64,000 nt of DNA from Anaerolineae bacterium (lineage in GTDB: Bacteria > Chloroflexota > Anaerolineae > JACIWR01): assembly GCA_024653325.1 (NCBI GenBank), contig JANLFX010000004.1, positions 6,628 to 70,627 on the forward strand, read 5' to 3'. Of this stretch, positions 8,606-64,000 are shown piece by piece. The notes under the pieces are model-generated. The model saw nothing but the letters and a program-made list of their open reading frames with translations, made no database searches and was not told where the DNA came from. The position numbers and the translations under genes are program-made. The number at the start of each line of letters is the position of its first letter. Position 1 is the stretch's first letter.

Positions 8606-10443
8606 TAGACCTGGCCCTGCGTATGCAGTCCGTTATCACCCATCAATCGTGGTACCAGGGCCGAACGGTCGCACAACCGCCGCTGGCGGCCGGACGGGTG
8701 GGCCTGGGGATTGTCAACCCACAGCCGCAGCCGGCCAGCAACGAGGATGAGACGGTCCTGGTGTGGATGGATGGCGAGATTTACGACTTCCAGCGACAGG
8801 AGCTTTCCCGCCGGTTGCAGGCGGCCGGTCACAGGCTTGAGGGTAAGGGCGATGCAGAGCTACTGGCTCACCTATATGAGGATGAGGGTGAGGATTGTTT
8901 TTACAACCTTGATGGTACGTTCGCTGTGGCGATTTTCGACAACCATCTGAACAAGTTGCTGATCGGCGTGGATCGTGATGCCTCGCGGCAATTGTATTTC
9001 TATACCTGCGACAACCGATTCCTGTTTGCCTCGGAAGTTAAGGCCATCCTGCAGGACCATCGTGTGCCGCGCCGGTTGGATGAACAGGGCCTGGTCGAGT
9101 TCTTCACCTTCCGTCATCCCCTCGGTGAGCGTACGCTGATCAGGGATGTGCGTTTCCTGCCTGCTGGCTGTCTGGTCGTCTTCTGTAATGGCCAGGCTCA
9201 GGTCAGGCGCTACTGGGAACCGGTTGTGGTTGATGATTTTTCTCGATCGCGAGAAGAGTACCTGGCCGAGCTGGAGGCGGGATTGCGATGGGCGCTGGAA
9301 CGTCAGTTGTATGACGACAGGCCCATTGGTGAGATGTTGAGTGGGGGCCTGGATTCCCGCTTGTTGGCTGGCATGATACCGCCCCAGCGGATGGAGCACT
9401 TCCATACCTTCAGTCGAGGCCCACTGGAATGCTGGGATGTCAGATTTGGTACCCTGGTTGCCAGGGCAATCGGCAGCCAGCATCATATCTTTGAGCTCAA
9501 GCCGGATTTTCTCCCCCCCCTGGCCAGACAGGGCGTGTGGTTGACCGACGGGCTGATGACCGTGATGGATATCTATGAGTTGAGTTCCATTGAGCTGGTC
9601 AAGTCCTGTGTTGACGTTGTCTTCCTGGGTCTCGGCCGAGGTTGTGGCATTTTGGGCGGTGTGGAATTGAGCAAAAGGCTGCTGGAGGCCCGAAATCTGG
9701 ACGAAGCGGCGCAGGAGTTTTTCGCTCGACAGGGGACTTATATTCCCCAGGATATGCAGGCCCGGTTGCTCTCTGGCCAGCTCTATAAGAATACACAGGG
9801 CGCAGCCTTTGAGACCTTCCGTCAGATGCTGGAGAGCTGTCAGGCCGACACTCCCGCCGGTCAGGTTGAGGTCTTCTGTATCCAGTGCCGCTGGCCGCGG
9901 TCGGCAAACTATGGCCCTTTTCTGGCCCGCACACAGGTGGAGACCCGCCACCCCTATAATGATAATGACTTCTCTGATCTGGCGTGTCGGGTGCCCGCCC
10001 GCTGGCGGCTGAAGCGGCAGATGGAGATAGCCCTTCTCAAGCGCGTCCGGCCTGACCTGGCCCGGATCCCCTATGACTATACGGGCTTGCCGGCCAGCGT
10101 CAGCACCCCCACTGTCATGTTCATTCAGCGTGGGCTTTATTATATGCGCCGCCGGGCAAGTTATCTGACCCGGGGGTGGATCCCGGCCGGCACGGAACGG
10201 GAACGGGCTAACTATCCGGTCTGGTTTCGCACCAGCCTACGAAAATGGCTGGAAGGTATCCTGCTGGATCGGCGCACGCTGGGTCGCGGTTATCTAAACG
10301 AAGCCTTTCTCAGACAGATGATCCGCGATCACATGAATGGTCGTCGAGACTATTCTATCCAGTTCGGGCTTTTGCTGACCTTTGAGTTGTGGAACCGCCT
10401 GTTCATAGACGGGGAGCCTGTGACCACCGATGCGCCGGGTTAA
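8554..10443 (+). CDS. Asparagine synthetase family (AsnB-like) amidotransferase with degenerate glutaminase active site
   Basis: N-terminal domain aligns to class-II GATase (…GEIYD…, …GDAEL…). Synthetase PP-loop SGGLDS is present (EMLSGGLDSRLL). N-terminus reads M-A-G-IFGI, not M-C-G-I. Confidence 0.8.
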   Translation: MAGIFGIYDPEMAREHLIDLALRMQSVITHQSWYQGRTVAQPPLAAGRVGLGIVNPQPQPASNEDETVLVWMDGEIYDFQRQELSRRLQAAGHRLEGKGDAELLAHLYEDEGEDCFYNLDGTFAVAIFDNHLNKLLIGVDRDASRQLYFYTCDNRFLFASEVKAILQDHRVPRRLDEQGLVEFFTFRHPLGERTLIRDVRFLPAGCLVVFCNGQAQVRRYWEPVVVDDFSRSREEYLAELEAGLRWALERQLYDDRPIGEMLSGGLDSRLLAGMIPPQRMEHFHTFSRGPLECWDVRFGTLVARAIGSQHHIFELKPDFLPPLARQGVWLTDGLMTVMDIYELSSIELVKSCVDVVFLGLGRGCGILGGVELSKRLLEARNLDEAAQEFFARQGTYIPQDMQARLLSGQLYKNTQGAAFETFRQMLESCQADTPAGQVEVFCIQCRWPRSANYGPFLARTQVETRHPYNDNDFSDLACRVPARWRLKRQMEIALLKRVRPDLARIPYDYTGLPASVSTPTVMFIQRGLYYMRRRASYLTRGWIPAGTERERANYPVWFRTSLRKWLEGILLDRRTLGRGYLNEAFLRQMIRDHMNGRRDYSIQFGLLLTFELWNRLFIDGEPVTTDAPG

Positions 10444-12772
10444 TGTCCGATACCCCATCTGGCGGATTCAGGCCGTCCTCGCCAAAGGCCCAGAGCACCT
10501 GCTGAGGCTGGGTCAATGGTATGCAGGGCAGGCTGCTCAGCAAGCCTTCAGGTCCTGGCGTCCTTCGGCAGTGGGCGAAAGGGCATTCCTCGCTCAGCTT
10601 TCCATGCCCTCCGCCCGGCAGGCTAGGCGAGACGGCGATCCTGTGGCATTGAAGCGGGCGGTGGCTCACCACTTCCGGAAGCGTGCCCGGCCTGTGTTCT
10701 TTTTCGACCCGAATGACATCCAGGCTCTTGTCGTCAACGTGCAGGAAGCGGATAAAAAACGCACCATCGCTCAGGCCGATGAGATCTGTGATCTTGTTTT
10801 CCGCTTCCGTGGGGAGCCGCCTGTAGCGTTCGATGGGCCGGTGGATTGGTTCTACTGCCCACGGGGGAACCGCGATTGGACATGGGAGCTGAATCGCCAT
10901 AGCTACTTTGTGACCCTGGGGCGGGCTTATGCTTATACCGGGGACGATCGTTACGTTCACACTTTCCGCGATCTGTTGCTCGATTGGCTCAAGCGTAACC
11001 CGGTGGGACTCGACCAGCCCAATTGGGCCAGTGTGCTCGAGGTCGCTTACCGCATCAATGCCTGGATATGGGCTTACCATCACTTTCGGGTGGCTCCCGG
11101 TCTCGACGACGATGCTCTGCTTGCCTGTCTGCGTGGCCTGTGGATTCACGGCCGCTATCTGGCGGCCAACCTGGAGTATCACGTGCCCAACAATCACCTG
11201 CTGCTGGAAAGCAAAGCCTTGGCGATGTGCGGCCTGTTGTTCCCCGAGTTCAGGGATGCAGGCGAGTGGCTCGAACGCGGGCTTTCTATCCTGTGGCAGC
11301 AACTCCGCCGGCAGGTTGGTCCGGATGGTGTGCACAGGGAACAGGCAACCATGTACCACCGGATGATCACCAGCGAATTGCTTGAGCTGCTCGTGCTGTT
11401 GGACAACAACGGCATCGTCGTGCCTCCAGGCATGAAGGACATTTTCAAGCGATTGCTCGATTTTGAACGTGCTTTCACAGGGCCCGATGGTCAGATTCCT
11501 CTGATCGGCGACTCGAGCCTCAGCGATAGCTATATTCGCTTCTCCGCCCTGTCCGGCGGAGCCGTTTTCCTGGGTTGTGCCGGTGGTGCGCCCGCCGCCA
11601 TTGACGAGGCGACCCTGTGGCTTCTGGGTCTGGAGCGGGTTGCACGACCGTCGCCGTCCGGCGAAGTTTTGGCCCCTCCGGCTTCGCAGGCTTTCCCTGA
11701 GGGTGGCTATTTCATCATGCGGGATGGCGATGGCCGGGAAGCCCCTTATCTGATTTTTGACTGCGGGCCTTTCAGCTATCGCCCGGCACCGGGCCACGGC
11801 CATGCGGATGCCCTGAGTTTTGAATTGCATGCCTGCGGGCGACCGCTGATCGTCGATCCAGGGGTATACACCTACCACCTGGGAAGGCAATGGCGCAACT
11901 ACTTTCGGAGCACCCCGGCTCACAACACGGCCGTCGTGGACGGAGAGGACCAGTCGTTGTTGCTGGGTACGTGGCATATCCTCCGACCGGCACGGGTTAC
12001 GCTCCACGAGTGGGTGACCACCCGGCAATTTGACTTTGTGGACGGTTCCCACGACGGATATACACGCCTTCGTCAGCCCATCATTCATCGGCGGCAGATC
12101 TTCTTCGCCAAACCTGAATACTGGGTCATCTTCGACCTTCTTAATGGGCAGGGCCAGCACCGATTCGATCTCTACTTTCACCTGATGCCCGATGCACGGG
12201 TTTCCCTCGACCCGCTTTCGGGCGCGGCTCGCATCGAGTACAGCAACGGCGTGGGCCTTCTGGTCTGCCCGGCCATCTATGCCGGTTCCCAGGCTGAGGT
12301 TATCGCCGGCAGTCTCGACCCAATCCAGGGCTGGGTTTCCCGGTATTCAGGCGAAAAGACTCCCGCGCCAACCTTGCGATACGGGAAGGTCATAGATGCC
12401 CCGACTATGTTCGTCACCGTTCTTTATCCCTCTGCCCGGATGGATCGGGCCGCTGTCAGGGTGTCGCCACTGGTTGTGACCGACGGGGAGAGGGCTTTCG
12501 ACGAGGTAACAGTGACCGGGCTGAGAGTTGAAGTGGGCCCATATGTGGACTATCTGGTGGTGGATCGTCGTGAACAGCCGGGCCGCAAGGCCTTCGGCCG
12601 CTACATCACCGACGGGAGACTCGTTTATCTACGCCGGTGTACCTCAGGCAGTGGGCCGATCAAGGCTGTTATCCATCGAGGTAGCGAGCTCAGGCTGAGC
12701 AGCGAACCATGGATCGTGCGTGCTGAAGGGCCTGTATCCCGTGAACCTACGGAGTATAACGGCTGGAGTTAA
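10430..12772 (+). CDS. Heparinase II/III-like protein (alginate-lyase-like N-domain + Hepar_II_III C-domain; PL12/PL15/PL17-type fold), no signal peptide
   Basis: Motif HGHADALSFELHACGRPLIVDPGVYTYH is typical of Hepar_II_III family. The architecture fits at 780 aa. The N-terminus lacks a signal peptide. Confidence 0.7.
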   Translation: MRRVNVRYPIWRIQAVLAKGPEHLLRLGQWYAGQAAQQAFRSWRPSAVGERAFLAQLSMPSARQARRDGDPVALKRAVAHHFRKRARPVFFFDPNDIQALVVNVQEADKKRTIAQADEICDLVFRFRGEPPVAFDGPVDWFYCPRGNRDWTWELNRHSYFVTLGRAYAYTGDDRYVHTFRDLLLDWLKRNPVGLDQPNWASVLEVAYRINAWIWAYHHFRVAPGLDDDALLACLRGLWIHGRYLAANLEYHVPNNHLLLESKALAMCGLLFPEFRDAGEWLERGLSILWQQLRRQVGPDGVHREQATMYHRMITSELLELLVLLDNNGIVVPPGMKDIFKRLLDFERAFTGPDGQIPLIGDSSLSDSYIRFSALSGGAVFLGCAGGAPAAIDEATLWLLGLERVARPSPSGEVLAPPASQAFPEGGYFIMRDGDGREAPYLIFDCGPFSYRPAPGHGHADALSFELHACGRPLIVDPGVYTYHLGRQWRNYFRSTPAHNTAVVDGEDQSLLLGTWHILRPARVTLHEWVTTRQFDFVDGSHDGYTRLRQPIIHRRQIFFAKPEYWVIFDLLNGQGQHRFDLYFHLMPDARVSLDPLSGAARIEYSNGVGLLVCPAIYAGSQAEVIAGSLDPIQGWVSRYSGEKTPAPTLRYGKVIDAPTMFVTVLYPSARMDRAAVRVSPLVVTDGERAFDEVTVTGLRVEVGPYVDYLVVDRREQPGRKAFGRYITDGRLVYLRRCTSGSGPIKAVIHRGSELRLSSEPWIVRAEGPVSREPTEYNGWS

Positions 12773-24385: not shown

Positions 24386-24462
24386 GCCCCAGTAGCTCAG
24401 CTGGACAGAGCAACTGCCTTCTAAGCAGTGGGTCGCGCGTTCGAATCGCGCCTGGGGTGCCA
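24386..24462 (+). tRNA. tRNA-Arg (anticodon TCT)
   Basis: Folded by hand. Acceptor GCCCCAG/CTGGGGT, D-arm GCTC-AGCTGGACA-GAGC, anticodon stem ACTGC/GCAGT with loop CTTCTAA, variable GGGTC, T-arm GCGCG-TTCGAAT-CGCGC, discriminator G, encoded CCA. Confidence 0.85.
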
Positions 24463-51863: not shown

Positions 51864-54263
51864 CTACCCTTGCGAAGGTTCTAAACCTTCGCAAGGGTAA
51901 AGCGGGATTAGGGCTCTCACCGTCGTCCCTCGCCCCGGCGCGCTTTCGATCTCGAACTGCCCGCCGAGTTGCTCCACCCGTTCCCTCATGCTCCACAGCC
52001 CCAGATGCGTCCCCGACCGGGGTGCCTCGGGATCGAATCCTCGCCCGTCGTCGGCGATGCGCAAGGTCACATGTCGCTCATCCTGCTGCAGGGTCACCTC
52101 AACTCGCTGCGCCTGGGCATGCCGGACCACGTTGTTCAGCCCCTCCTGAGCGATCCGAAACAGGGCTGTCTCCACCGGTGCTGGGAGGTGTCGGCCTTCG
52201 TCCGCCGTGAACTCGATGACCAACCCGTGCTCTTGCTGGCAGTGAGCCAGGTAGTCTCGCAAGGCCGGCACCAGCCCCAGCTCATCCAGCGCCGCCGGCC
52301 GCAGGTCGTACATCAGGCGGCGAATGTCCCGAATGCTGGCCTGAGCCTGCTCAGCCAGTTCTTCGATCTCCCCGGCGACCGGGTGGTGGTCTTGTTCCAG
52401 GAGCTTGCGGGCGGTGCGTAGGCGTAGGTTCAGGCTGGCCAGGGCAGGCCCCAGCCCGTCATGAAGCTCGCGGGCGATGCGCCCCCGCTCCTCCTCCTGG
52501 GCCGCTGTCACCAGGGCCAACTGCTGACGCAGGATGGCCATCCGCTCTTCGTGTAATCGCGCGTTCTCCAGGGCCAGGGCCGCGCTGTGAGCCAGGGTGG
52601 TCAGCAGTTCCACGTCCTCCTGGGTGTAGAGATCGCCGGAGCGCTTCTCTCCCAGGGTCAGGACGCCTACCAACTGCTCGCCGGTCAGAAGAGGCACGGC
52701 CAGCGTCGCCCCGATCCTGCGCAGATCCTCGGCCTGAGGGGAGCGGTCGTCAGGAAGCAACAGCAAAGGACGTTGCACCCGGGTCAGCCAGGTGACCAGA
52801 CTCCAGACTTCCGAAGTCCCCGAGACTTCGGAAGTCTCGCCGTCGTCCAGCAGCCAAATCCTGGCCCCCTGGGCGCCCAAGGTCTCGCTCACTGTGTCCA
52901 GCACTAGGTGTACTACCTCCTCTTTGTCGCGCAGGGTGCTCAGGTCCCGGCTGAAAGCGGTTAGCGCCTGGCGCACCTCGTACTCTCGCCGGAAGAAGGC
53001 GCGGTCCACGAAGGTCTGGATTCGATTGCGAGCTGGCTGGAAGAGGACGGCGATGAGCAGCGCCGGGGCCAGGGCAGCCAGGAAGGATGGCTGGCCGCTC
53101 AGTCCCTGGAAGAGGTAGCCGGTGAGCAGGGAGAGGAGCAGGAAGACAGTGGTGAGGGTGACCGTCAGCAACGAGTAGACCAACCCCTTACGCACCACCA
53201 CCCGGGTGTCTAAGAGCTGGTAGCGCAGGACGGCGTAGCCAACGGAGAGGGGGTAGAGGGTGGCGATGATGCCACCCCAGTGCATGCTGGCCGGGGGTGG
53301 AAAATGGAGGACGGCAGGACCCCACAGGAAGACAATCCAGCCTCCCAGGCCCAGGCTGATGCCCACCAGGAGCACCACGGCTTGCTGCCGGATCAGCGGC
53401 GAAGCCTTCTTCCGCAGGGCGATCTGGAGCAAGGGAACCGTCTTGTTGACTACCGAGCCCAACGCGAGCACCACGAAATGGCCCCAGGTGCCTGACCAGA
53501 GGTACAGGCGCCACAGGGAGGGGGTGTCCAGGTGGGAGGCCAGGAAAAAGAGCGTGGGGAAATAGACCGTGAAGGCGGCAGCCAGGGCCACGAAGGCCGG
53601 GATCAGAAGCCAGCGGGCCAGGAACTCCTTGCGCGCCCGGTCGGCGGGGAAGCTCCAGAAGAAGATCCAGCCAGCCACGGCGGCGATCGCCGTCCAGGGA
53701 TGGACCAGATACGCCGTCCACTTCTGCTGGCTGAGGTAACAATCCCACACCGCCCCGACGATGCTCGCCCAGAGCAGAAGGTAAAGGAGGAGATAGCGAT
53801 TAAGCCGACCGTTGGGGTTGCGCGCGTAGACGAAGATGCCCACGGCCAGGGAGAAGAGGGCAAAAAGAAGTCCCCCGGGGATAAAGCGCCACAGGATGTC
53901 GGCAGTGAACTCCATGGTGGGCACAGCGATCTGGAGCCTCTGGTCGCCCCGCTCCACAGTGTAGACCACGATGCCGCCGATGCCTGCCTCCCTCACCAGG
54001 CGGCGTATCTCCCGCCAGTGCTGCCCGTTCACCGCCACAATGCGATCCCAGGGGCGCAGGCCGGCCTGCCAGCCGGTAAAGTCCTGAGGGGTGAAGCCGC
54101 TGACGATGCGGTCTGGGGTGTAGAAGAAGCCGGGGAAGGGATGACCGATCTGGCTGGCGACGGAATAGAGAGAAGCGGCCCAGATCAGGGCAGCCGCCAG
54201 AATCACGCCCGCCACCACCCAGCGGGGGTGTACACTAGGAGAAGTGGCAAAGACACGCCTCAT
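51864..54263 (-). CDS. Sensor histidine kinase (N-terminal PDZ-like region, polytopic membrane domain, GAF, HisKA_3 + HATPase_c; NarX/LiaS class)
   Basis: HisKA_3 H-box (ELHDGLGPALASL). G-boxes (…GRGTTVRALIPL). GAF-like segment. Multiple TM helices. Start at MRRVFATS with GAGGAG RBS. Confidence 0.8.
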   Translation of the reverse strand: MRRVFATSPSVHPRWVVAGVILAAALIWAASLYSVASQIGHPFPGFFYTPDRIVSGFTPQDFTGWQAGLRPWDRIVAVNGQHWREIRRLVREAGIGGIVVYTVERGDQRLQIAVPTMEFTADILWRFIPGGLLFALFSLAVGIFVYARNPNGRLNRYLLLYLLLWASIVGAVWDCYLSQQKWTAYLVHPWTAIAAVAGWIFFWSFPADRARKEFLARWLLIPAFVALAAAFTVYFPTLFFLASHLDTPSLWRLYLWSGTWGHFVVLALGSVVNKTVPLLQIALRKKASPLIRQQAVVLLVGISLGLGGWIVFLWGPAVLHFPPPASMHWGGIIATLYPLSVGYAVLRYQLLDTRVVVRKGLVYSLLTVTLTTVFLLLSLLTGYLFQGLSGQPSFLAALAPALLIAVLFQPARNRIQTFVDRAFFRREYEVRQALTAFSRDLSTLRDKEEVVHLVLDTVSETLGAQGARIWLLDDGETSEVSGTSEVWSLVTWLTRVQRPLLLLPDDRSPQAEDLRRIGATLAVPLLTGEQLVGVLTLGEKRSGDLYTQEDVELLTTLAHSAALALENARLHEERMAILRQQLALVTAAQEEERGRIARELHDGLGPALASLNLRLRTARKLLEQDHHPVAGEIEELAEQAQASIRDIRRLMYDLRPAALDELGLVPALRDYLAHCQQEHGLVIEFTADEGRHLPAPVETALFRIAQEGLNNVVRHAQAQRVEVTLQQDERHVTLRIADDGRGFDPEAPRSGTHLGLWSMRERVEQLGGQFEIESAPGRGTTVRALIPLYPCEGLEPSQG
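51866..51898. repeat. REP-like palindrome (cccttgcgaaggttctaaaccttcgcaaggg), right flank of RAYT; also encodes the last 12 codons and stop of the histidine kinase
   Basis: Minus-strand reading ctt tac cct tgc gaa ggt tta gaa cct tcg caa ggg tag = LYPCEGLEPSQG*. Confidence 0.85.
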
Positions 54264-54633
54264 ATCTAATCTCCTCTCGACCGTTGAGGAATGGGAAACC
54301 TGAGCCACCACTAGGCGCGCTTATCTGAGAAACCTATAATTATTTTACAACAGATACAATCAGAAATCAATCTTGACAGACCTGGAGGCGCATGTTAGTT
54401 TGGAGGTTGATTCTGCCACCCGCAGTCTGGGATAGAGTTGGTGCGTTACTTCATGCTCACCGACATGCGCCAGGAGCCCCGCAGAGAGTGTGCCGGGCTC
54501 CTGGCCTCTTCTCGTACAAGTTAAAGTGGTGGGCCAAGCCGATCGTCACCGTGGCATAGGCTCAGGGTTCAACCCAGTAAGGGCGTCGGTGTGGCCGTGG
54601 GCGGCATTGGCGTCAATGCCCTGCTGTAGGCCG

Positions 54634-55020
54634 TCATTTTTTCTTGGCGGCATAGTATTCGGCCATAGCTGTGTAGCGAGCGGCATCGGCATCAATACCC
54701 CGCTGTACGCTGGTTTCTTCCTTGGCGGCATAGAATGCGCCCATGGCGGTGTACCGGGCGGCGTCGGCGTCAATACCTCGTTGTATGCTCTCGTTCTTGG
54801 CGGCATAGTATTCGGCCATAGCTGTGTAGCGGGCAGCATCGGCGTCAATACTGCGCTGTAGGCTGTCCTCATTTTCGGTAACAATGGCGGCTGGCTGGGT
54901 TTCTGCTGTTGGAATGGTGCTCACAAGAATACCCACGATCAATCCAACGGCCAAGATGGTCATGGCAACCACGACTGGCTTGAGCCATTGCTTGATAACG
55001 AGTGAATTTGCTGACATCAT
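54634..55020 (-). CDS. Small membrane-anchored protein with three tandem 22-aa repeats (QRGIDADAARYTAMAEYYAAK)
   Basis: GGAGG RBS 6 nt upstream of the ATG. N-terminal TM helix. The 66-bp DNA repeats 1 and 3 are near-identical. Confidence 0.6.
   Translation of the reverse strand: MMSANSLVIKQWLKPVVVAMTILAVGLIVGILVSTIPTAETQPAAIVTENEDSLQRSIDADAARYTAMAEYYAAKNESIQRGIDADAARYTAMGAFYAAKEETSVQRGIDADAARYTAMAEYYAAKKK
54640..54870. repeat. Tandem 66-69 bp coding repeats (3 units) with a 4th degenerate out-of-frame unit at ~54560-54633
   Basis: cttggcggcatagtattcggccatagctgtgtagcg(a/g)gc(g/a)gcatcggc(a/g)tcaata recurs at 54646 and 54784. Confidence 0.8.
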
Positions 55021-55236
55021 TTACCTCCCTATTTGTTGGATTAAGAAATTCTGGATCCTTGTCTCCCAATAGACCTGTCATGCATAAGCATCACCTCTCT
55101 TCAAACTCTGGTAGATGTACCTCTGGGGGCTGATTTTGCACTCAGTATAACAGAGAAAGGTGGCGAGAAGGCGGCGGGAACGTGGCGAAAACGAGGCGGT
55201 TGAAAAATCAGTTCTTTTGATGTATAATGCCCATAG

Positions 55237-58200
55237 GTGTTGGATTTGCTACAGGCTCTTTCAGAAGGGGGAACGGTGGCGCATCTGTCACTTTCCTGCC
55301 TGGGACCTTTCCAGGTGACGTTGGATGGGCAACCGGTCATGGGCTTTAAATCGAACAAGGTCCGGGCCCTGCTGGCTTATCTGGCCGTGGAAGCGGACCG
55401 GCCGCATCGCCGTGAGGTGTTGGCCGGATTGCTGTGGCCCGATTGGCCTGACCGAGACGCCCTCAGCAACCTGCGCTACACTCTGGCCAATCTCCGGCAG
55501 GTGATCGGCGATCGCACAGCGGAACCGCCTTTCTTACTCATTACCCGCGACACGATCCAGTTCAACCCGGCCAGCGATTACTGGCTCGATGTCACGGCTT
55601 TCATAGACCTGATTGGTCTCCGAGATATGTCAGGTCTAGAAAGGGCCGTTGCTATGTACCAAGGCAGCTTCCTGGAGGGCTTCTCTGTCAGCGACAGCCC
55701 CGCCTTCGAGGAATGGGCACTGCTTACCCGGGAGCAGATCGGCCGCCAGATGTTGTTCGCACTCCATAGCCTGGCGGCAACCTACGAGCAACGCGGCCAG
55801 TACGAGCAAGCCCAGTCCCGTGCCCGGCGGCAAGTCGAGCTCGAGCCTTGGGACGAGGCAGCCCACCAACAACTGATGCGAGCGCTGGCCCTCAGCGGTC
55901 AGCGCAGCGCCGCCCTGTCCCAGTATGAGATCTGTCGCCGTCTCCTGGCCGAAGAGCTGGGCGTCGAGCCGGCTGCAGAAACGACGCGGCTGTACGAGCA
56001 GATCCGAGATGGCAAGCTGAAAACCACTGCGCCTTCCCTTGTTTCCCCTCCCGATCTCACCGCCAGACTTCCCCCTTTTCTGGCAGAAGAGGCACCTCCG
56101 GTTGAGGTGCCTGTTTTTGTCGCTCGCGAGAGTGAGTTGGCGCAACTGGAGGGGTTTCTGAATCTGGCGCTGGCCGGCCGGGGTCGGGTGACATTCGTCA
56201 CCGGGGAAGCGGGCAGCGGCAAGACGGCCCTGCTCCAGGAATTCACCCGCCGGGCTCAAGAGGCCCATGACGACCTGATCGTTGCCAGTGGGAACTGCAA
56301 TGCCTACACCGGCATCGGCGACCCCTACCTGCCCTTCCGCCAGATCCTGGGGTTGCTGACCGGCGATGTCGAGGCCCGGTGGGCAGCGGGAGCCATGACC
56401 AGAGAACACGCCTGCCGCCTGTGGAATACGCTCCCCCTTACGACGCAGGCGCTGGTAGACGCCGGGCCGGACCTGATTGATACCTTCGTCCCTCGCGCCG
56501 CTTTGCTTGAGCGGGCTATGACCTATGCGCCCAATGGGACAGGCTGGCTGAACCGCCTGGATGAGCTTGTTGAACGCCGGCCGACCACCGTTTCCAGCGC
56601 TCCCGGCCCCCAACAGAGCGATTTGTTCCAGCAGTACACCAGGGTGCTGCTGGCCCTGGCGCAACGGGCACCATTGCTCTTGGTGGTGGATGACTTGCAA
56701 TGGGCGGACCTGGGCTCGATTAGCTTGCTCTTCCACCTGGGGCGACAGTTGACGGGCAGCCGTATCCTGATCGTGGGCGCTTACCGCCCGGAAGAAGTCG
56801 CATTGGGCAGGGACGGAGCCCGGCATCCCTTGGAGCCCGTGCTCAACGAGTTCCAGCGCGACTTTGGCCACATCACAGTGGATTTGGGCCAGGCCAAGAG
56901 CCGGGACTTTATCGAGGCTTTGCTGGACAGCGAGCCAAACCGGCTGGGGGTCGCGTTTCGGGAGATGCTCTACCGACAAACTCGCGGCCATCCCCTGTTC
57001 ACCATTGAATTGCTGCAAGGCCTGCAGGAGCGGGAGGATCTGGTCCAGGACCCAGAGGGCCGCTGGGTGGAGGGGCCGGCGTTGGACTGGGAGACCCTGC
57101 CGGCACGGGTGGAGGCAGTGATCGCGGAGCGCATCGGTCGTCTGGCCGAACCATTACAGGCTGCATTGCGGGTGGCCTGCGTGGAGGGTGAGATATTCAC
57201 CGCCGAGGTGGTAGCCCGGGTACGGGCGACCGACGAGCGAGAGATGCTGGGCCGCTTAAGCAGTGAGTTGGACAGGAAGCATCATCTGATACGGGCCGAG
57301 AGCATCCAGCGCGTGGACGACCAGCTCCTGTCCAGCTACCGTTTCCGGCATATCCTCTTCCAGAGATACCTGTACAGCAGCCTGGACGAGGTAGAACGGG
57401 TGTACCTGCACGAGCAAGTTGGGACTGCTCTGGAGGGGCTGTACGGCGCTCAGGAGCAGGTCGCGGCTATCGCTGTGCAGTTGGCGCTGCACTTTCAGAA
57501 AGCCAGGATAACGGAAAAGGCGATCCATTACCTGCGCCAGGCCGGGGAAAGGGCCGTGGAACTGTCCGCCTATCAGGAGGGGATCGCTCACCTGACCAGA
57601 GGGCTGGCCTTGCTCATGGCCCTGCCGGACTCCCCCGGGCGCGCGCAGCAAGAACTCGCCCTGCAACTGGCCCTCGGCATGGCCTGGATAGGCTTCAAGG
57701 CCTTTTCAGACCCAGAAGTGGAAAAAGCCTACACCAGGGCCCGCGAACTGTGCCTGCAGACGGGGAAGACGCCGCAGATTTGCCGGGTACTGGGTGAGCT
57801 GTCTATCATGTACTATGTGCGGGCCGAGCATCAGAGGGCGCGTGAGCTGGCAGAAGAGGCGCTTAGCCTCGCTCAGCAGACTGAGGACCCGCTGCTCGTG
57901 GCAGTGGGCCACTGGTATTTGGGATTTATCTTGTTCTGTCTCGGAGAATACACGACAGCCCTAGGTCACCTGGAGCAGGTGATTGCTTTCTACAACCCTG
58001 AGCAGCACCATCGCTCCTTCGTAGTATTGCGCGGGTCGGATGTAGGACCGAGCGCCCTGGCCTACGCGGCTTGTTGCTCGTGGTGCCTTGGTTATCCCAA
58101 TCAGGCCCTGAACCGCAGCCAGGAGGCGCTGGCCCTGGCGCGAGAGCTGGGCCACCCCTTTTCACTGGCCGATGTCCTCTTTTATGCGGGTTGCATGTTC

Positions 58201-58803
58201 AACGAGATGCGCCGCGATGCACAGGCATTCAAGAACAATGCGGAGGAGCTGATGCAAATAGCGCATGAGAAGGTTCCAGGCTGGCTGGGACAGGGAACTC
58301 GCTTCTGGGGAAAGGCGCTGGCCATGCTGGGACAGGTCCAAGAAGGGATGGTGCAAATACGCCAGGGCATGGCGATTGACCAGTCTGTAGGCATACGGTT
58401 GTACTTGTCAGAGACACTTGGCTCTCTGGCTGAGGCGCAGGCCAAGACCGGACACCCGGAGGAAGGACTGACCACGCTGAACGAAGCGCTCGCCCTGGTG
58501 GAACAGACGGACGAGCGCCACTGGGAAGCAGAGCTTTATCGTCTGAAGGGAGAGTTGCTGCTCATGCAGGGCGATGAAGCTGAAGCCGAAGCCAGCTTTC
58601 AGAAGGCCATCGAGGTGGCCCGTCGCCAGCAGGCCAGGTCATGGGAGCTGCGGGCGACGGTGAGCCTGTGCCGCCTATGGCAGAAACAGAGCAGGGCTGA
58701 CGAAGCGCGGCAGATGCTCGCCGAGATTTATGGTTGGTTCACCGAAGGGTTTGACACACCAGACTTGAAAGAAGCGCAGGCGCTTCTCGAAAGTTTATCA
58801 TGA
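55237..58803 (+). CDS. STAND-class regulator: SARP/AfsR-like BTAD (winged-helix + bacterial transcriptional activation domain) + AAA/NB-ARC ATPase + TPR repeats
   Basis: N-terminus LSCLGPFQVTLDGQPV…KVRALLAYLAV… (BTAD). Walker A VTGEAGSGKTAL. Long C-terminal TPR-like helical repeats. Confidence 0.8.
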   Translation: MLDLLQALSEGGTVAHLSLSCLGPFQVTLDGQPVMGFKSNKVRALLAYLAVEADRPHRREVLAGLLWPDWPDRDALSNLRYTLANLRQVIGDRTAEPPFLLITRDTIQFNPASDYWLDVTAFIDLIGLRDMSGLERAVAMYQGSFLEGFSVSDSPAFEEWALLTREQIGRQMLFALHSLAATYEQRGQYEQAQSRARRQVELEPWDEAAHQQLMRALALSGQRSAALSQYEICRRLLAEELGVEPAAETTRLYEQIRDGKLKTTAPSLVSPPDLTARLPPFLAEEAPPVEVPVFVARESELAQLEGFLNLALAGRGRVTFVTGEAGSGKTALLQEFTRRAQEAHDDLIVASGNCNAYTGIGDPYLPFRQILGLLTGDVEARWAAGAMTREHACRLWNTLPLTTQALVDAGPDLIDTFVPRAALLERAMTYAPNGTGWLNRLDELVERRPTTVSSAPGPQQSDLFQQYTRVLLALAQRAPLLLVVDDLQWADLGSISLLFHLGRQLTGSRILIVGAYRPEEVALGRDGARHPLEPVLNEFQRDFGHITVDLGQAKSRDFIEALLDSEPNRLGVAFREMLYRQTRGHPLFTIELLQGLQEREDLVQDPEGRWVEGPALDWETLPARVEAVIAERIGRLAEPLQAALRVACVEGEIFTAEVVARVRATDEREMLGRLSSELDRKHHLIRAESIQRVDDQLLSSYRFRHILFQRYLYSSLDEVERVYLHEQVGTALEGLYGAQEQVAAIAVQLALHFQKARITEKAIHYLRQAGERAVELSAYQEGIAHLTRGLALLMALPDSPGRAQQELALQLALGMAWIGFKAFSDPEVEKAYTRARELCLQTGKTPQICRVLGELSIMYYVRAEHQRARELAEEALSLAQQTEDPLLVAVGHWYLGFILFCLGEYTTALGHLEQVIAFYNPEQHHRSFVVLRGSDVGPSALAYAACCSWCLGYPNQALNRSQEALALARELGHPFSLADVLFYAGCMFNEMRRDAQAFKNNAEELMQIAHEKVPGWLGQGTRFWGKALAMLGQVQEGMVQIRQGMAIDQSVGIRLYLSETLGSLAEAQAKTGHPEEGLTTLNEALALVEQTDERHWEAELYRLKGELLLMQGDEAEAEASFQKAIEVARRQQARSWELRATVSLCRLWQKQSRADEARQMLAEIYGWFTEGFDTPDLKEAQALLESLS

Positions 58804-58854
58804 CTGACGCGGGGGAAAGCCGCGACTTAGAAAACACTCCTCAAGAGGCAGAGC

Positions 58855-59658
58855 GTGATCGTAAAAGAGATAAACTGCAAGTCCATCCTGACCAAATCGG
58901 GCATTGAGGGCGTTGACTACGCCCTCAATCCCTATGTGGGTTGTGCACACGGCTGCGTGTACTGTTACGCCAGTTTTATGAAGCGCTTCACCGGTCACCC
59001 GGAGGAATGGGGCACCTTCGTGGACGTCAAAGTCAACGCGGCAGAGGTGCTGGCCCGCCAGATGCGACGGGCGAAGCCGGGCAATATCTCCTCCGGCACG
59101 GTGACCGACCCCTATCAACCGCTGGAGGCACGGTACGAGATCACCCGCGCCTGCCTGCAGGTACTCGCGGACCACGATTTTCCTGTCTCCATCCTCACCA
59201 AATCCGACCTGGTACTGCGCGACCTCGACCTCCTCCGCCGCCTCAAGAATGTGGAAGTGGGTTTTACCATCACCACTCTGGACGAAGAAGTGCAGCGATT
59301 TTTTGAGCCAGGCTCCTCCCCTGCCTCGGCACGCCTGGCGGCCCTGGCAGAACTGGCAAAGGCGGGGATCAAAACCTGGGCCTTCTGCGGCCCGTTCTTG
59401 CCCTTCCTCTCGGACGGTGAAGAACAGATAGATGCCCTCTTTGCAGCACTGGCGAGGGCTGGTATTTCGTACATCATCGTGGACAGCATGAAGCTCAGCG
59501 GCGCAATTGGGGGAAAGGTCAGGAGAGCGTTGGAAAAACACTACCCCGACCTGGTGGAGGGATACCGCCACATCGCCGCCAACCGCCAGCCCTATCACGG
59601 GGCGCTGATGGCCAGGGCGCGAATGCTTGCTGAGAAGCACGGCCTGACAATAGAGTAG
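58855..59658 (+). CDS. Radical SAM protein, SplB-like ('DNA repair photolyase' COG1533 family)
   Basis: …LNPYVGCAHGCVYCYA… (CxxxCxxC). Family-typical N-terminus KEINCKSILTKS. Confidence 0.65.
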   Translation: MIVKEINCKSILTKSGIEGVDYALNPYVGCAHGCVYCYASFMKRFTGHPEEWGTFVDVKVNAAEVLARQMRRAKPGNISSGTVTDPYQPLEARYEITRACLQVLADHDFPVSILTKSDLVLRDLDLLRRLKNVEVGFTITTLDEEVQRFFEPGSSPASARLAALAELAKAGIKTWAFCGPFLPFLSDGEEQIDALFAALARAGISYIIVDSMKLSGAIGGKVRRALEKHYPDLVEGYRHIAANRQPYHGALMARARMLAEKHGLTIE

Positions 59659-59705
59659 CGGGTCAACGAGCAATGAGTAACACGTTACCCGCTACTCTTT
59701 ATTCG
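59653..59705 (+). terminator. Hairpin (gagtagcgggt…acccgctactc) + T-tract after the radical SAM gene; possible terminator with a long loop
   Basis: 11-bp stem, 23-nt loop, followed by tttattcg. Confidence 0.35.
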
Positions 59706-59899
59706 TTGACTTGTTACTTTGGACTACAACGATGGGCGTTCGATGAGCTTTTATTGCACGGCATTTTGCTTGTCATCTGAGCCCTTTGATTGCACTCAAG
59801 GACTGGCCTCTGCGTTCTCGGCGGTAAACAAACACGAGAATTGTATGTTGGGTGGAGATGTGGTAAAATAGAATAATCACTAAACGAGGAGGTTAACTT

Positions 59900-60598
59900 A
59901 TGGAGTTACTGGACTATCTGAGAATCCTGCGCCGACGCGGCTGGATCATCATTCTCCTTGCTGTGATCGCCGCTGCCAGCGCCTACGGCTTCAGTAAAAC
60001 CATGACACCCATCTACCGCGCCGAGATCAAACTCAATGTCATCCCCGCCCGCGCTGACTGGGGACTGAGCAACACAGCCAAAGACCTGCTGCGCAACTAC
60101 GGAGTCAATATCCACTCTCACAAAACAGCGCAGAAGATCATTGATCGGGCCCAACTGGACATGACCACTTACGAACTGCTGGAGAAAATGAATGTTAACC
60201 CCGAAACGTCCGATTTCACCATCCTGATCGATGCCAAAGACCCTAATCCGAATGTGGCCATCCAGATCGTGCAAACCGCAGCCGAGGTCTTTGTCGAGCG
60301 TCAACGCGAATGGAATGCCCAACAAGACAAACAGGACCGGATAGACGTTTCTATTGTTGACGACGCCCGTGATGCACCTCTCTACTCGCCCAAGACCAAA
60401 ATCAATACCCTGGCGGGAGGAATAGCCGGGGCGCTGCTGGGCGGGATCATTGTCTTCTTCCTGGAGTGGTTGGAATCGAGCGTGGTGCGCTCCTCGCAGG
60501 ATGTGGAACGCGCCCTGGGCATTCCTGTGCTGGGCGCTATCCCGGTCACTTCTGATGGCAGTGGGACGCGACGTCTGCTGCGCATTCGCACAAAATGA
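59900..60598 (+). CDS. Polysaccharide co-polymerase modulator (CapA/YwqC/Wzz-N type, PCP2b)
   Basis: N-terminal TM (WIIILLAVIAAASAYGF) plus Wzz-type motif and C-terminal TM. GAGGAGG RBS. Confidence 0.7.
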   Translation: MELLDYLRILRRRGWIIILLAVIAAASAYGFSKTMTPIYRAEIKLNVIPARADWGLSNTAKDLLRNYGVNIHSHKTAQKIIDRAQLDMTTYELLEKMNVNPETSDFTILIDAKDPNPNVAIQIVQTAAEVFVERQREWNAQQDKQDRIDVSIVDDARDAPLYSPKTKINTLAGGIAGALLGGIIVFFLEWLESSVVRSSQDVERALGIPVLGAIPVTSDGSGTRRLLRIRTK

Positions 60599-60615
60599 GC
60601 CAGGAGGAAATCTGA

Positions 60616-61281
60616 ATGGCCTTAAACGATCTGATTACCGTCACCAACCCCCGCTCACCAATTAGCGAGGCTTTTCGCACCCTGCGCACCAACTTAGAAT
60701 TCTCCAGCCTGGATCACCCTTTGCACACCATGGTCGTCACCACAGCCACACCTGAGGAGGGTAAGTCCACCACCTTGGCCAATCTGGCAGTGATCATGGC
60801 CGAGGGCGGCAAGCGAGTCATTTTGGTGGACTGCGATCTGCGCCGACCGGCATTGCACGACATTTTCGGAATACCCAACGACGAAGGGCTAACGGCCATG
60901 CTGCGCAACAACGCGGCATTGAACGACCCCCCCTTGCAGGAGGTGGGCATCGAGGGCTTATCACTGCTGCCCAGCGGTCCTCTACCCGCCGACCCGGTCG
61001 TGTTGCTGGGCTCGCGACGCATGGGAGAAGTTATCGCCACCCTAAAAGAACGAGCTGACCTGGTCCTTTTCGACGCGCCCCCCGTGGTGGCCGTTACCGA
61101 CGCTGCCGTACTTGCCGCTCGGACCGATGGTGTGCTCCTCCTCCTGCGAGCCGGAAGCACCCGCCGCGAATACGCGCAGCGTGCCAAAGAGCTGCTGGAA
61201 AAAGTCAACGTGCGCATAATCGGAGCTGTGCTCTGCAATGCACCTTTTGATGCAACATTCCGGCGCTACTACGCGACGTAG
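60616..61281 (+). CDS. BY-kinase (CapB/YwqD/CpsD-type tyrosine-protein kinase ATPase)
   Basis: Walker A TTATPEEGKSTTLANLAV and Walker A'/B (ILVDCDLRRP, LVLFDAPPV). GGAGGA RBS. Confidence 0.8.
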   Translation: MALNDLITVTNPRSPISEAFRTLRTNLEFSSLDHPLHTMVVTTATPEEGKSTTLANLAVIMAEGGKRVILVDCDLRRPALHDIFGIPNDEGLTAMLRNNAALNDPPLQEVGIEGLSLLPSGPLPADPVVLLGSRRMGEVIATLKERADLVLFDAPPVVAVTDAAVLAARTDGVLLLLRAGSTRREYAQRAKELLEKVNVRIIGAVLCNAPFDATFRRYYAT

Positions 61282-61320
61282 AACGGGCTTAAGCCATTCT
61301 ACAATGGGAGTGAGATTGTA

Positions 61321-62715
61321 ATGAAAACAACTTTAATCTACGCCGGAATCTCCGGCTACGGATTCAACAGCCTGGGCCGAGGCATGGAAGCCGGCTGGAT
61401 CAGCCATGGTCTGGCCCATTTAAGCAGTGCTGCCAAAAGCGCAGGTTTCGAGATTGATCTTATTGACCTGCGGGCCCTGAAAGGATGGGAAGATTTTCGC
61501 ACCGAAATCGAGAAGCGTCGGCCAAACGTGACCGGACTGACCATGATGAGCGTGGACTACAATCCGGTGATGCAGTGTGTAGACATGATCAAAGACATTG
61601 ACCCCCAAATCGTCACCGTGGTCGGCGGGCCGCATCCCACCCTGGCTTTGGATGAGGTGGCTGCCAATCCCCATATTGATTACATCGTCACCCACGAAGG
61701 GGAGATAACCTTTCCCAAACTGCTGGCGGCTATCCGCGATGGAAATCCGCCCCAGGAACGGGTCCTCCACGGCGAGATGCCCATCTTGGACAACCTGCCC
61801 TTCCCGGACCGCGACCTGTTTCTCGACGAGTGGCGACGCTGGGGCTACGATCTTGACTCGCCGGAGGTGCCCTTCGTCCCGGAACTACCACCACCTTTTC
61901 TGACCATAATTGCCGGCCGGGGATGTAAATACAACTGCAATTTCTGCCAGCCCGCCGAGCGCATCCTTTTTGGCCGTCAGGTGCGCCGTCGCAGTGCGCC
62001 CAACATCATCGCCGAGCTGAAAATCCTGCGCGATAAGTACCACTTCGCCTCCCTCATGTTCCACGATGACACCCTGACTGAGGATCGAGAGTGGGTGCGC
62101 GAATTCTGCCGTCTCTACCAGGAAGAGGGCTTCACCCAACCGTTTTTCTGTCAATCGCGGGCGGACATCATCGTCCGTCACGAAGACATGGTCAAGCTGA
62201 TGGCGGACGCTGGCTGTCGGGGCTATTTCATTGGCTTCGAGAGCGGAAACGACCGGGTGCTCAAATTCCTGCGCAAAGGTACTACCCGCGAGATGAACTT
62301 GCAAGCAGCGCGCATCTGCCGGAAATACGGCATCTCCATCTGGGCCAACTACATGCTAGGCATCCCTACCGAGACCAAAGAAGAGGTCATGGATACCATC
62401 TCCATGCTCAAGGAAATTGATCCGGACTACTACAGCCCGGCTTTCTACACCCCCCATCCGGGCAGTGATTTGTATGAATACTGCGTCGAAAACGACTTAT
62501 CGCTCATCACCAGCCACGACCAGTACCGACGCAACCCCACCGAGACCAAAATCAGAGGCCAGGACTACGAATTCCTGCAATGGGCGCTCGTTGAATCACA
62601 ACGGCGCACCAGGTGGAACGCAGCCAAACGCCAGGCTAAATACTACTGGCAACGCTATGCTCAACCACGCAAAGCCCTGCGCAAACTGCGGCGGTTAATG
62701 ACCAGGACAACATAG
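61321..62715 (+). CDS. B12-binding domain radical SAM protein (class B)
   Basis: N-terminal B12-binding-like domain. rSAM cluster motif GRGCKYNCNFCQP (C-x3-C-x2-C). Confidence 0.8.
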   Translation: MKTTLIYAGISGYGFNSLGRGMEAGWISHGLAHLSSAAKSAGFEIDLIDLRALKGWEDFRTEIEKRRPNVTGLTMMSVDYNPVMQCVDMIKDIDPQIVTVVGGPHPTLALDEVAANPHIDYIVTHEGEITFPKLLAAIRDGNPPQERVLHGEMPILDNLPFPDRDLFLDEWRRWGYDLDSPEVPFVPELPPPFLTIIAGRGCKYNCNFCQPAERILFGRQVRRRSAPNIIAELKILRDKYHFASLMFHDDTLTEDREWVREFCRLYQEEGFTQPFFCQSRADIIVRHEDMVKLMADAGCRGYFIGFESGNDRVLKFLRKGTTREMNLQAARICRKYGISIWANYMLGIPTETKEEVMDTISMLKEIDPDYYSPAFYTPHPGSDLYEYCVENDLSLITSHDQYRRNPTETKIRGQDYEFLQWALVESQRRTRWNAAKRQAKYYWQRYAQPRKALRKLRRLMTRTT

Positions 62716-62763
62716 TGATACACCACTTGTCGCCAGCGACGAAGGCGTCCTGAAACCGGTCAT

Positions 62764-63042
62764 TTGGGAACAACTATGTCCAATCCGACGATATACCGCT
62801 ATCCAAGACAGGTTATTCGCAATCCCGATGGCACAGTTACCGAGGTTGAAAGAAATCTCAGGCAGAATGGTGACGTGTCAATCATTGTAAAGGTGAAAGA
62901 TTCGACAGGACATTACCTGGTGGTATATCATCTAGTTTACGACTCCGAGGGACAGTTGGTACACGGTCCACACGAGATTCCCGGTAGTCGAGATGCCGAC
63001 TATGATAAGCCATTTCCACGCGGTATTGGGAGGCAGCCATGA
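62764..63042 (+). CDS. Hypothetical small protein (beta-rich), translationally coupled to the next ORF
   Basis: ORF only; stop overlaps the next start (ATGA). No family recognised. Confidence 0.3.
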   Translation: MGTTMSNPTIYRYPRQVIRNPDGTVTEVERNLRQNGDVSIIVKVKDSTGHYLVVYHLVYDSEGQLVHGPHEIPGSRDADYDKPFPRGIGRQP

Positions 63043-63362
63043 GCATGGCTCTGATAAAAGAAACGGTCAAGAGAATTGACGACTTCCTGTCAGGAAAGAG
63101 TACAAGAGAAGAGACGTGGCAATGGGCAATCAACATTCTGACCCAGCAGACTTTCGGTGCCGATGAGCTGCTTTTAGAAGAAGCCATCACCGCTCTAGCA
63201 TGCCTGCACGATGCAGATGATCGCCTTGACACTGCGAATGAAGACCTAATTTATTTCAGAAATTGCCTGCTGGAGAAGACGCCGTACGCCATCTCCGTGG
63301 AATTCCCCGCGACACGGGTGGCAGATGAAAGAACAGACTATACAACCCCTGAGGAGGACTGA
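63039..63362 (+). CDS. Hypothetical small acidic helical protein
   Basis: ORF only; acidic C-terminus (…TPEED). No family recognised. Confidence 0.3.
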   Translation: MSMALIKETVKRIDDFLSGKSTREETWQWAINILTQQTFGADELLLEEAITALACLHDADDRLDTANEDLIYFRNCLLEKTPYAISVEFPATRVADERTDYTTPEED

Positions 63363-63365
63363 CCA

Positions 63366-64000
63366 TTGCGAAACCTGCTTATCACCGGCGGAGCCGGCTT
63401 CATCGGCTCCAACTTCGTGCGTTACATGCTGGAAACATATCCTGATTATCACCTGGTCGTTTACGATAAGCTGACCTATGCCGGTAATTTGGACAATCTC
63501 AAAGACGTGGCCGAGCGCTTTGTTGGTCGCTATGCCTTCGTCCAGGGCGACATCGCCGACGCGGGCAAAGTGGACGAGGTGATGCGGGAACATGAAATAG
63601 ACACCATCGTCAATTTCGCTGCCGCTACCCACGTGGACCGCTCGCTGATGGAACCGGATGAGTTCATCCGTACCGATGTCTTCGGCACCTACGTGCTCTT
63701 GGAAGCCGCCAAGAAGTTCGGAGTGGAACGCTATCATCAGGTCAGCAGTGTGACTGGCGATACTCCATTGCTGGTGCGCGATGAGCGAACCGGTGAGATC
63801 AGCCTGCGTGCAATTGCCGACTTAGCAAATGTGCCCCTAGACCAATTCTCGGTGCTGACATTGACCCCGGATTTCCAGGTGACTTTTCGCCGCATGGGGC
63901 GTCTGATCAGTCACCCGGCCCATGAGATTTACGAGATCACCTTCAATGGCGGTGGTCAGGTGCGGGTAACCGCTTCTCATTCCATCTTCATCTTCGAAGG
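63366..64000 (+). CDS. rfbB: dTDP-glucose 4,6-dehydratase (RmlB/RfbB), 3'-partial, interrupted by an intein beginning at Ser after …RYHQVS (intein continues past the window end)
   Basis: TTG start with GAGGAGG RBS. LITGGAGFIGSNFV Rossmann, …LTYAGN…, …NFAAATHVDRS…GTYVLLEAA… match RmlB up to the conserved HxxS preceding the catalytic TDE. Confidence 0.8.
   Translation, partial: MRNLLITGGAGFIGSNFVRYMLETYPDYHLVVYDKLTYAGNLDNLKDVAERFVGRYAFVQGDIADAGKVDEVMREHEIDTIVNFAAATHVDRSLMEPDEFIRTDVFGTYVLLEAAKKFGVERYHQVSSVTGDTPLLVRDERTGEISLRAIADLANVPLDQFSVLTLTPDFQVTFRRMGRLISHPAHEIYEITFNGGGQVRVTASHSIFIFE
63738..64000 (+). mobile_element. Intein (Hint domain), N-terminal part: Ser1 nucleophile, block A SVTGDTPLLV, block B RVTASHSIFIF
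   Basis: Block A and block B (TxxH) consensus read directly from the translation. Inserted exactly between HQVS and the expected TDEVYG of the host dehydratase. Confidence 0.75.

Follow-up and report, generated by a model that had tools for sequence, protein, structure and literature searches.

A 64,000-nucleotide stretch of contig JANLFX010000004.1 from an Anaerolineae bacterium (assembly GCA_024653325.1; hereafter the window) ends inside a gene for RmlB (RfbB), the dTDP-glucose 4,6-dehydratase, and this gene very probably carries a complete class-1 intein that has a LAGLIDADG homing endonuclease embedded in it and separates the Ser from the Thr of the active-site strand ...HQVS/TDEVYG... 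(a slash marks a junction here and below). An initial annotation of the window had proposed an intein with a Ser1 nucleophile at this point, with the catalytic Thr of the enzyme as the +1 residue, and had recognized that the window ends within the insert. Both residues can now be read in the full open reading frame (ORF) of a second, near-identical assembly, and 84 of the 510 intein residues lie inside the window.

The rmlB ORF occupies 63,366 to 64,000 on the forward strand (frame 1), 211 codons that are free of stops up to the window end. Its TTG start codon at 63,366 lines up with Met1 of the orthologs and is preceded, 7 nucleotides upstream, by a Shine-Dalgarno sequence, GGAGGA (63,353 to 63,358, forward strand; read directly and from the ORF table), that lies within the 3' end of an upstream 107-residue ORF (stop codon 63,360 to 63,362). 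The translation contains GGAGFIGS, LTYAGN, AATHVDRS, GTYVLLEAA and RYHQVS, all the strings on which colinearity with RmlB/RfbB had been based, followed by SVTGDTPLLVRDERTGEISLRAIADL and GGGQVRVTASHSIFIF. Residues 1-127 form the N-extein (63,366 to 63,746, forward strand), which includes the Rossmann NAD-binding motif GGAGFIGS and ends in ...VERYHQVS. It matches positions 2-125 of the dTDP-glucose 4,6-dehydratase profile TIGR01181 (E 8e-45; 153 bits for the window fragment, a partial sequence) and the RmlB structure 1kep in the PDB (E 2e-33), and is 92% identical to an intein-free ortholog, P0001, that reads ...RYHQVS-TDEVYG. The colinear match breaks off at ...RYHQVS, on the Ser before TDE, where the orthologs go on with TDEVYG.

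From 63,747 to 64,000 (forward strand), the sequence SVTGDTPLLV...VTASHSIFIFE supplies the N-terminal 84 residues of the intein. Block A, S1-V-T-G-D-T-P-L-L-V with Ser1 as the N-terminal nucleophile, lies at 63,747 to 63,776 (forward strand), placed by alignment and by comparison of the junction, and the core of block B, T75-A-S-H78 (TxxH), at 63,969 to 63,980 (forward strand); its H78 and S79 are invariant, and it aligns with block B of the TFIIB mini-intein 5o9i. Both blocks had been identified after HQVS by the initial annotation. On TIGR01445, a profile for the N-terminal splicing region of inteins (curated cut-off 24.5), these 84 residues obtain 25.5 bits (E 2e-5), and the window fragment reaches only 19 bits on Pfam Intein_splicing. 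Taken alone, the fragment makes the intein call marginally significant; the full-length sequence confirms it.

The top 120 homologs of the 211-residue fragment are all insert-free, ordinary RmlBs of about 340 amino acids, apart from two shorter partial sequences, and a word-indexed search with the 84-residue intein fragment alone gave no match. An exhaustive HMMER scan of the same fragment against 1.84 billion cluster representatives returned 26 matches, a few of which are further short-chain dehydrogenases/reductases (SDRs) whose intein begins near residue 120-133. When genome and metagenome contigs were scanned for the junction, three independent contigs, L001 (identical to L004), L002 and L003, came up with a relative 61-62% identical, and in each of them RmlB is encoded with the insert complete, ...HQ[VI]S/SVTGDTP...LLHN/TDEVYG... 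When the 515-residue insert of L001 was used as query, 36 clusters of RmlB-like proteins that also match Intein_splicing were found; it was only with the intein of a full-length relative as query that the family surfaced. One protein, P0146, starts with MTFRRMGRLISHPAHEIYEITFNGGGQVRVTASHSIFIFE, matching the window end. Its contig, L009 (JARYML010000066.1, assembly GCA_029907125.1, an Anaerolineae metagenome-assembled genome, MAG), aligns with window positions 53,970 to 64,000 over 10,031 nucleotides with one mismatch and no gaps (99.99%), an identity that points to L009 as the continuation of the window, and it extends 11.8 kb beyond. The sole difference is at window position 60,926, within a ParA-like ATPase gene (A in the window, C in L009).

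In L009 the full ORF (9397-11949) encodes 850 amino acids: N-extein 1-127, insert 128-637 (510 residues, L009 9778-11307) and C-extein 638-850. The frame is continuous across both junctions, HQVS/SVTGDTP and PCLLHN/TDEVYG; the insert ends in ...FFGGSVPCLLHN, after which the sequence resumes with TDEVYGQVLEG... and the rest of RmlB, the continuation expected for an intein at this site. Projected onto the window by the L009 offset, the intein would reach virtual coordinate 65,276 and the C-extein would occupy 65,277-65,918. An alternative boundary, HQV/SSVTG..., was rejected, because only HQVS/S...N/TDE restores the HQVSTDEVYG of intein-free orthologs. In the public annotation of L009, the gene is called from 9910 to 11949 (P0146, 679 amino acids, named 'GDP-mannose 4,6-dehydratase'), with no gene called at 9394-9909. 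This call begins at an internal GTG (window 63,879 to 63,881, forward strand; P0146 N-terminus MTFRRMGRLISHPAHE), which is not the real start, so that the N-extein and intein block A are left unannotated and the product is misnamed. Clusters P0127, P0141, P0144 and P0151 are N-truncated in the same way.

All residues of class-1 splicing are present: Ser1, T75-x-x-H78, Asp490, His509-Asn510 and Thr+1. In L009, block F reads ...IVYD490VSVPGCERFFGG and block G SVPCLLH509N510, with Thr next at +1. An alignment with 14 relatives leaves S1, H78, E234, K310, D334, Y489, D490, H509 and N510 invariant, together with V2, T6 and P7 of block A, and the Ser1 of SVTGDTPLLV is found in all 35 full-length proteins that were parsed. 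A Pfam search with the full 510-residue insert gives 50.8 bits on Intein_splicing (PF14890; cut-off 35.8). The intein interior has a GC content of about 0.50, compared with 0.56-0.58, a difference too weak to serve as evidence. By its sequence, the insert is in all likelihood a class-1 intein of canonical organization, with the Ser1/Thr+1 pair and a LAGLIDADG homing endonuclease, and we infer that splicing and DNA cleavage take place.

Excision of residues 128-637 leaves a protein of 340 amino acids that scores 440.3 bits on the equivalog profile TIGR01181 (cut-off 365.1), over positions 2-321 of 321, as anticipated for a conceptual spliced product that is RmlB. It is 95% identical to intein-free P0001 (325/341), with a one-residue gap 12 residues past the junction. 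Its motifs comprise GGAGFIGS (in the window), T-D-E directly after the intein, and Y-S-A-S-K in the C-extein of L009. T-D-E and Y-S-A-S-K correspond to the [ST]DE...Yx3K signature, for which Table 1 of PMC8987622 assigns Thr/Ser to the catalytic triad and gives Asp as general acid and Glu as base. By this correspondence of motifs, the +1 nucleophile of the intein is the predicted catalytic-triad Thr of RmlB. With 510 residues wedged into the active-site strand, the precursor should be inactive until spliced. The ratio of nonsynonymous to synonymous substitution rates (dN/dS) of the extein against P0001 is 0.046, indicating strong purifying selection, and both exteins are in frame.

In the proposed mechanism, the 850-residue precursor would be translated as a single chain, from which the Hint domain would excise itself by an N-O acyl shift at Ser1 and transesterification to Thr+1, after which Asn510 would cyclize with the help of His509 and an O-N shift would follow. 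The exteins would thus be rejoined into RmlB of 340 amino acids, with the catalytic-triad Thr as first residue of the C-extein. The freed intein would act as a site-specific DNA endonuclease, cutting intein-free rmlB alleles at the insertion site, and repair of the break would copy the intein into the cut allele (homing).

Two LAGLIDADG helices, ...FGLYLAE234GH... and ...FFHGYEGD334A..., can be recognized in the insert, with K310 between them; the invariant residues of this region in the 14-relative alignment are G229, L230, Y231, A233, E234, G235, K310, G330, Y331, G333 and D334. A structure was modeled with AlphaFold for the intein of P0132, which is 72.5% identical to that of the window, from a 14-sequence alignment (mean predicted local distance difference test score, pLDDT, 90.5; predicted template modeling score, pTM, 0.88). 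In a Foldseek search of the PDB, every one of the model's top matches is an intein with an endonuclease: PI-PkoII (E 8.7e-29, template modeling scores 0.64/0.62), TliVMA, PI-PfuI, PhoVMA and PI-SceI. Lower matches are mini-inteins (TFIIB, PolII, RadA), then two LAGLIDADG enzymes that are free-standing, I-DmoI and I-SceI, and the hedgehog Hint domain 1at0. Judged from the model, the insert is thus predicted to adopt a Hint plus LAGLIDADG fold, as opposed to that of an unrelated fused domain. The model also contains a winged-helix-like module of three helices and a beta hairpin (intein residues ~131-187, L009 ~10168-10338), which follows the N-lobe of Hint and precedes the LAGLIDADG core. Conservation within the intein is lowest in this module, weak matches to helix-turn-helix profiles (HVO_A0261_N, IclR-HTH; ~residues 138-193) overlap it, and, as judged from other large inteins, it presumably serves as an additional domain for DNA binding.

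PI-PkoII (intein 2 of the Thermococcus kodakarensis DNA polymerase, PDB 2cw7), which tops the structural matches to the P0132 model, also matches the L001 intein in sequence over the LAGLIDADG region (E 7e-12). Both it and the RmlB intein are large class-1 inteins in which Hint is combined with a LAGLIDADG endonuclease of two motifs and with further modules for DNA binding. However, PI-PkoII resides in an archaeal family-B DNA polymerase and the RmlB intein in a bacterial sugar-nucleotide enzyme, identity in the structural alignment is only ~18%, and the RmlB intein differs in the winged-helix-like module that separates its Hint N-lobe from the endonuclease. The nearest sequence relatives of the Hint domain are archaeal TFIIB inteins (E 4e-12; the Mja and Mvu mini-inteins, PDB 5o9j and 5o9i, and full-length forms in L005-L008), which share the all-oxygen Ser1/Thr+1 pair and the ...LHN/T C-junction but are hosted by an archaeal transcription factor, are 26-32% identical and were crystallized in forms without endonuclease. 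PI-SceI, the yeast VMA1 intein and the archetype of intein homing, has the same architecture and an acidic-Lys-acidic endonuclease site (structural match E 1e-10). Its endonuclease residues are D218, K301 and D326, and the E234, K310 and D334 of the RmlB intein show nearly the same Lys-to-Asp spacing. The life cycle proposed here, splicing and homing with co-conversion of flanks, would be that of PI-SceI, which is nevertheless a distant relative (10-12% identity) with a Cys1/Cys+1 pair and a eukaryotic ATPase as host.

Public databases contain about 40 protein clusters with an intein at this site (P0121-P0156, P0178, P0182 and P0191 belong to the same intein lineage at the same S/TD site). The insertion point is common to all 35 parsed full-length proteins, ...S/S-V-x-x-x-T-P...L-L-H-N/T-D-[EY]-V, with Gly at -1 in one. 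Organism names given by the sources cover Chloroflexota (Anaerolineae, Ardenticatenales, Caldilinea), Pseudomonadota (Competibacteraceae) and Marinimicrobia. The inteins nearest to that of the window, in P0140, P0132 and P0133, are 72-76% identical, and none is closer. P0156, once spliced, is not RmlB but RmlD, the dTDP-4-dehydrorhamnose reductase (TIGR01214, 237.7 bits against a cut-off of 224); its intein is of the same lineage (31% identity), with junctions FIS/SVTGDTP...LLHN/TDYVF at the equivalent site, which suggests that the lineage jumped between paralogous enzymes of one pathway. Elsewhere in the extended-SDR family, P0171, a UDP-glucuronate-decarboxylase-like SDR, carries an intein at another site, ...RIFN/SVLADETL...VLAHN/TYGPRM, a second insertion point in the family.

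The initial annotation had also raised the possibility of a new insertion site. Full-text searches of the literature turned up no paper on an intein in RmlB or RfbB, and InBase or survey supplements may already list one; at the level of sequence databases the site is not new, as ~40 clusters share it. One of them, P0145, is labeled 'dTDP-D-glucose 4,6-dehydratase/intein/homing endonuclease' by the Joint Genome Institute (JGI), and most of the other members that have a name at all are entered as 'epimerase/dehydratase family protein' or 'GDP-mannose 4,6-dehydratase', names that leave the intein unmentioned. The text of the main prokaryotic intein survey names no RmlB-type host, and by far most bacterial inteins are placed in proteins of replication, repair and nucleotide metabolism (PMC4760082, Table 1). 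The RmlB site is under-described rather than newly discovered: a known kind of mobile element, with no new mechanism, in a host class undescribed in the searched literature.

How the intein arrived can be approached from intein-free P0001, which lies in a syntenic locus (L010; Wzz, ParA-like ATPase, B12-radical S-adenosylmethionine (SAM) protein, RmlB), so that a close relative owns the same gene without the intein; its junction, around L010 position 10,381, reads ...CATCAGGTGAGC directly followed by ACTGATGAGGTG... The extein DNA of the window allele is 90.4% identical to that of P0001 overall, but the differences are not evenly spread: 27 of the 98 fall between -50 and +40 nucleotides of the insertion point (binomial P 3e-10). 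Identity to P0001 is 92.8% and 92.0% far from the junction on the N and C sides, and 78.3% and 66.7% within 60 nucleotides of it. Against intein-bearing P0132 the order is reversed, with 74.1% and 75.2% far from the junction and 83.3% on each side near it. Of the sites that distinguish P0132 from P0001, 24 lie within 60 nucleotides of the junction on either side, and the window allele is P0132-like at 16 of these, compared with 34 of the 217 other sites (Fisher p 2.8e-7). This mosaic tract of ~120 nucleotides is co-conversion-like, the footprint expected when a double-strand break is repaired from a donor with the intein. The intein and the extein are, in addition, incongruent in their identities: P0121 is 81% identical in its extein and 54% in its intein, P0140 70% and 76%, and the gammaproteobacterial Competibacteraceae 47-49% and ~50%. 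From these sequence comparisons, the intein was probably acquired by homing. Phage as its vector was a further candidate: scans of viral contigs and phage genomes gave no close copy, only distant matches to the LAGLIDADG region (21-33%) in other genes, and neither support nor refute it.

Several observations weigh against parts of this interpretation. Everything downstream of the 84 intein residues in the window rests on L009, a separate assembly, and the evidence for the fold comes from the P0132 relative and not from the window's own intein. When the full intein is scanned, the TIGR01445 score, marginal for the fragment, falls to 20.9 bits, under the cut-off of 24.5. Pfam LAGLIDADG_3 (PF14528) reaches 15.7 bits, below its cut-off of 22.5; there is a precomputed match to this family on the relatives P0153-P0155. 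The differences at the junction could partly reflect adaptation of the extein to splicing instead of co-conversion.

One alternative is a splicing-competent intein whose homing endonuclease is dead, inherited only vertically as a passenger fixed in the lineage. Decayed endonucleases are common among large inteins. Decay does occur in this family, as shown by an internal deletion of ~29 residues in P0122 and the shortening of the P0182 intein to 410 residues, and both the sub-threshold LAGLIDADG_3 score and the lack of a copy on the viral contigs and phages scanned fit a passenger of this kind. Yet E234, K310 and D334 are invariant, and dN/dS, which is rough and indicative only since dS is near saturation (~1.7), is ~0.09 for the intein and ~0.05 for the LAGLIDADG core (the lowest of the intein segments), values comparable to the extein. 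The co-conversion-like tract, the incongruence of intein and extein across phyla and the 95%-identical intein-free ortholog in a syntenic locus also speak against vertical inheritance with a dead endonuclease, and we regard this possibility as rather unlikely. The mosaic tract, the incongruence, the dN/dS values and the intein-free syntenic ortholog together favor an endonuclease active now or recently, and we consider it fairly likely, on this comparative evidence, that the endonuclease is, or recently was, active.

A more novel idea is that splicing may gate the synthesis of dTDP-rhamnose and cell-surface polysaccharide post-translationally, with the intein as a conditional-splicing regulator and not just a selfish passenger. 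All-oxygen Ser1/Thr+1 pairs tend to splice slowly and in a condition-sensitive manner. The intein sits directly before the catalytic-triad Thr, so RmlB could not act until spliced. This pair, this position and the presence of the same lineage at the equivalent site of RmlD are the grounds for a regulatory role, which seems improbable.

Also very improbable is a splicing-dead, Hint-derived insertion, which would make rmlB a pseudogene, or its product a permanently fused, inactive protein, with RmlB function provided from elsewhere in the genome. A tblastn search of the window plus L009 (76 kb) detected no rmlA, no rmlD and no second rmlB (rmlC was not searched for), and these 76 kb are too little to judge essentiality or redundancy. 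On the other side, the splicing residues are all intact and conserved, and the exteins are in frame, with low dN/dS and 95% protein identity to P0001. The same architecture is kept in ~40 diverged clusters, which is hard to explain unless active enzyme is regenerated. An assembly or binning chimera of an rmlB fragment with an unrelated intein-bearing gene, conceivable for a MAG contig on which the window ends within the insert, is effectively refuted by the 99.99% agreement of two assemblies across the N-side junction, by the reading frame unbroken through both junctions and by the same junctions in independent contigs from many samples (L001, L002, L003, L012, L013).

The neighbors of rmlB are genes for Wzz, a ParA-like ATPase and a B12-radical SAM protein, and in the relatives L001 and L013 an RmlA-like gene lies upstream. 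Just past the rmlB stop (L009 11949), at L009 11957-11985, there is a hairpin with a 12-bp stem, AAACCCGTTTTC...GAAAACGGGTTT, and a moderately T-rich tail, resembling an intrinsic terminator, followed by a gene for an SbcC-like AAA ATPase (L009 12146-14704). From this hairpin and the gene after it, rmlB seems to be the last gene of its transcription unit, with no rmlA, rmlC or rmlD downstream. Between the B12-radical SAM gene and rmlB lie two small ORFs, window 62,764-63,042 (92 amino acids) and 63,039-63,362 (107 amino acids), which overlap by 4 nucleotides and have no match in Pfam. The syntenic intein-free locus L010, with a gap of only 90 nucleotides at this place, lacks both ORFs, and they may be a small inserted two-gene cassette. 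Secondary BLAST matches also showed direct repeats of ~110 nucleotides, 83% identical, at window 54,599-54,712 and 54,756-54,865, upstream of a large BTAD/AAA/TPR regulator gene (55,237-58,803); L009 has a 127-residue minus-strand gene call there. The sole tRNA in the window is tRNA-Arg (anticodon TCT, 24,386-24,462).

For genome annotation, gene callers, which often start these genes at internal codons or name the product GDP-mannose dehydratase, may lead pathway reconstructions from Chloroflexota MAGs to mis-score rmlB as truncated or absent. The cysteine-free catalytic pair Ser1/Thr+1, from a bacterial source and not an archaeal hyperthermophile, would be of possible interest for protein engineering only if splicing is efficient. 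The syntenic intein-free ortholog at 95% protein identity and the co-conversion-like tract of ~120 nucleotides make up an unusually clean natural signature of homing. With RmlB and, in one case, RmlD as hosts, this well-supported and apparently mobile family of inteins in SDR enzymes that act on nucleotide sugars adds a host class outside the network of replication, repair and nucleotide metabolism.

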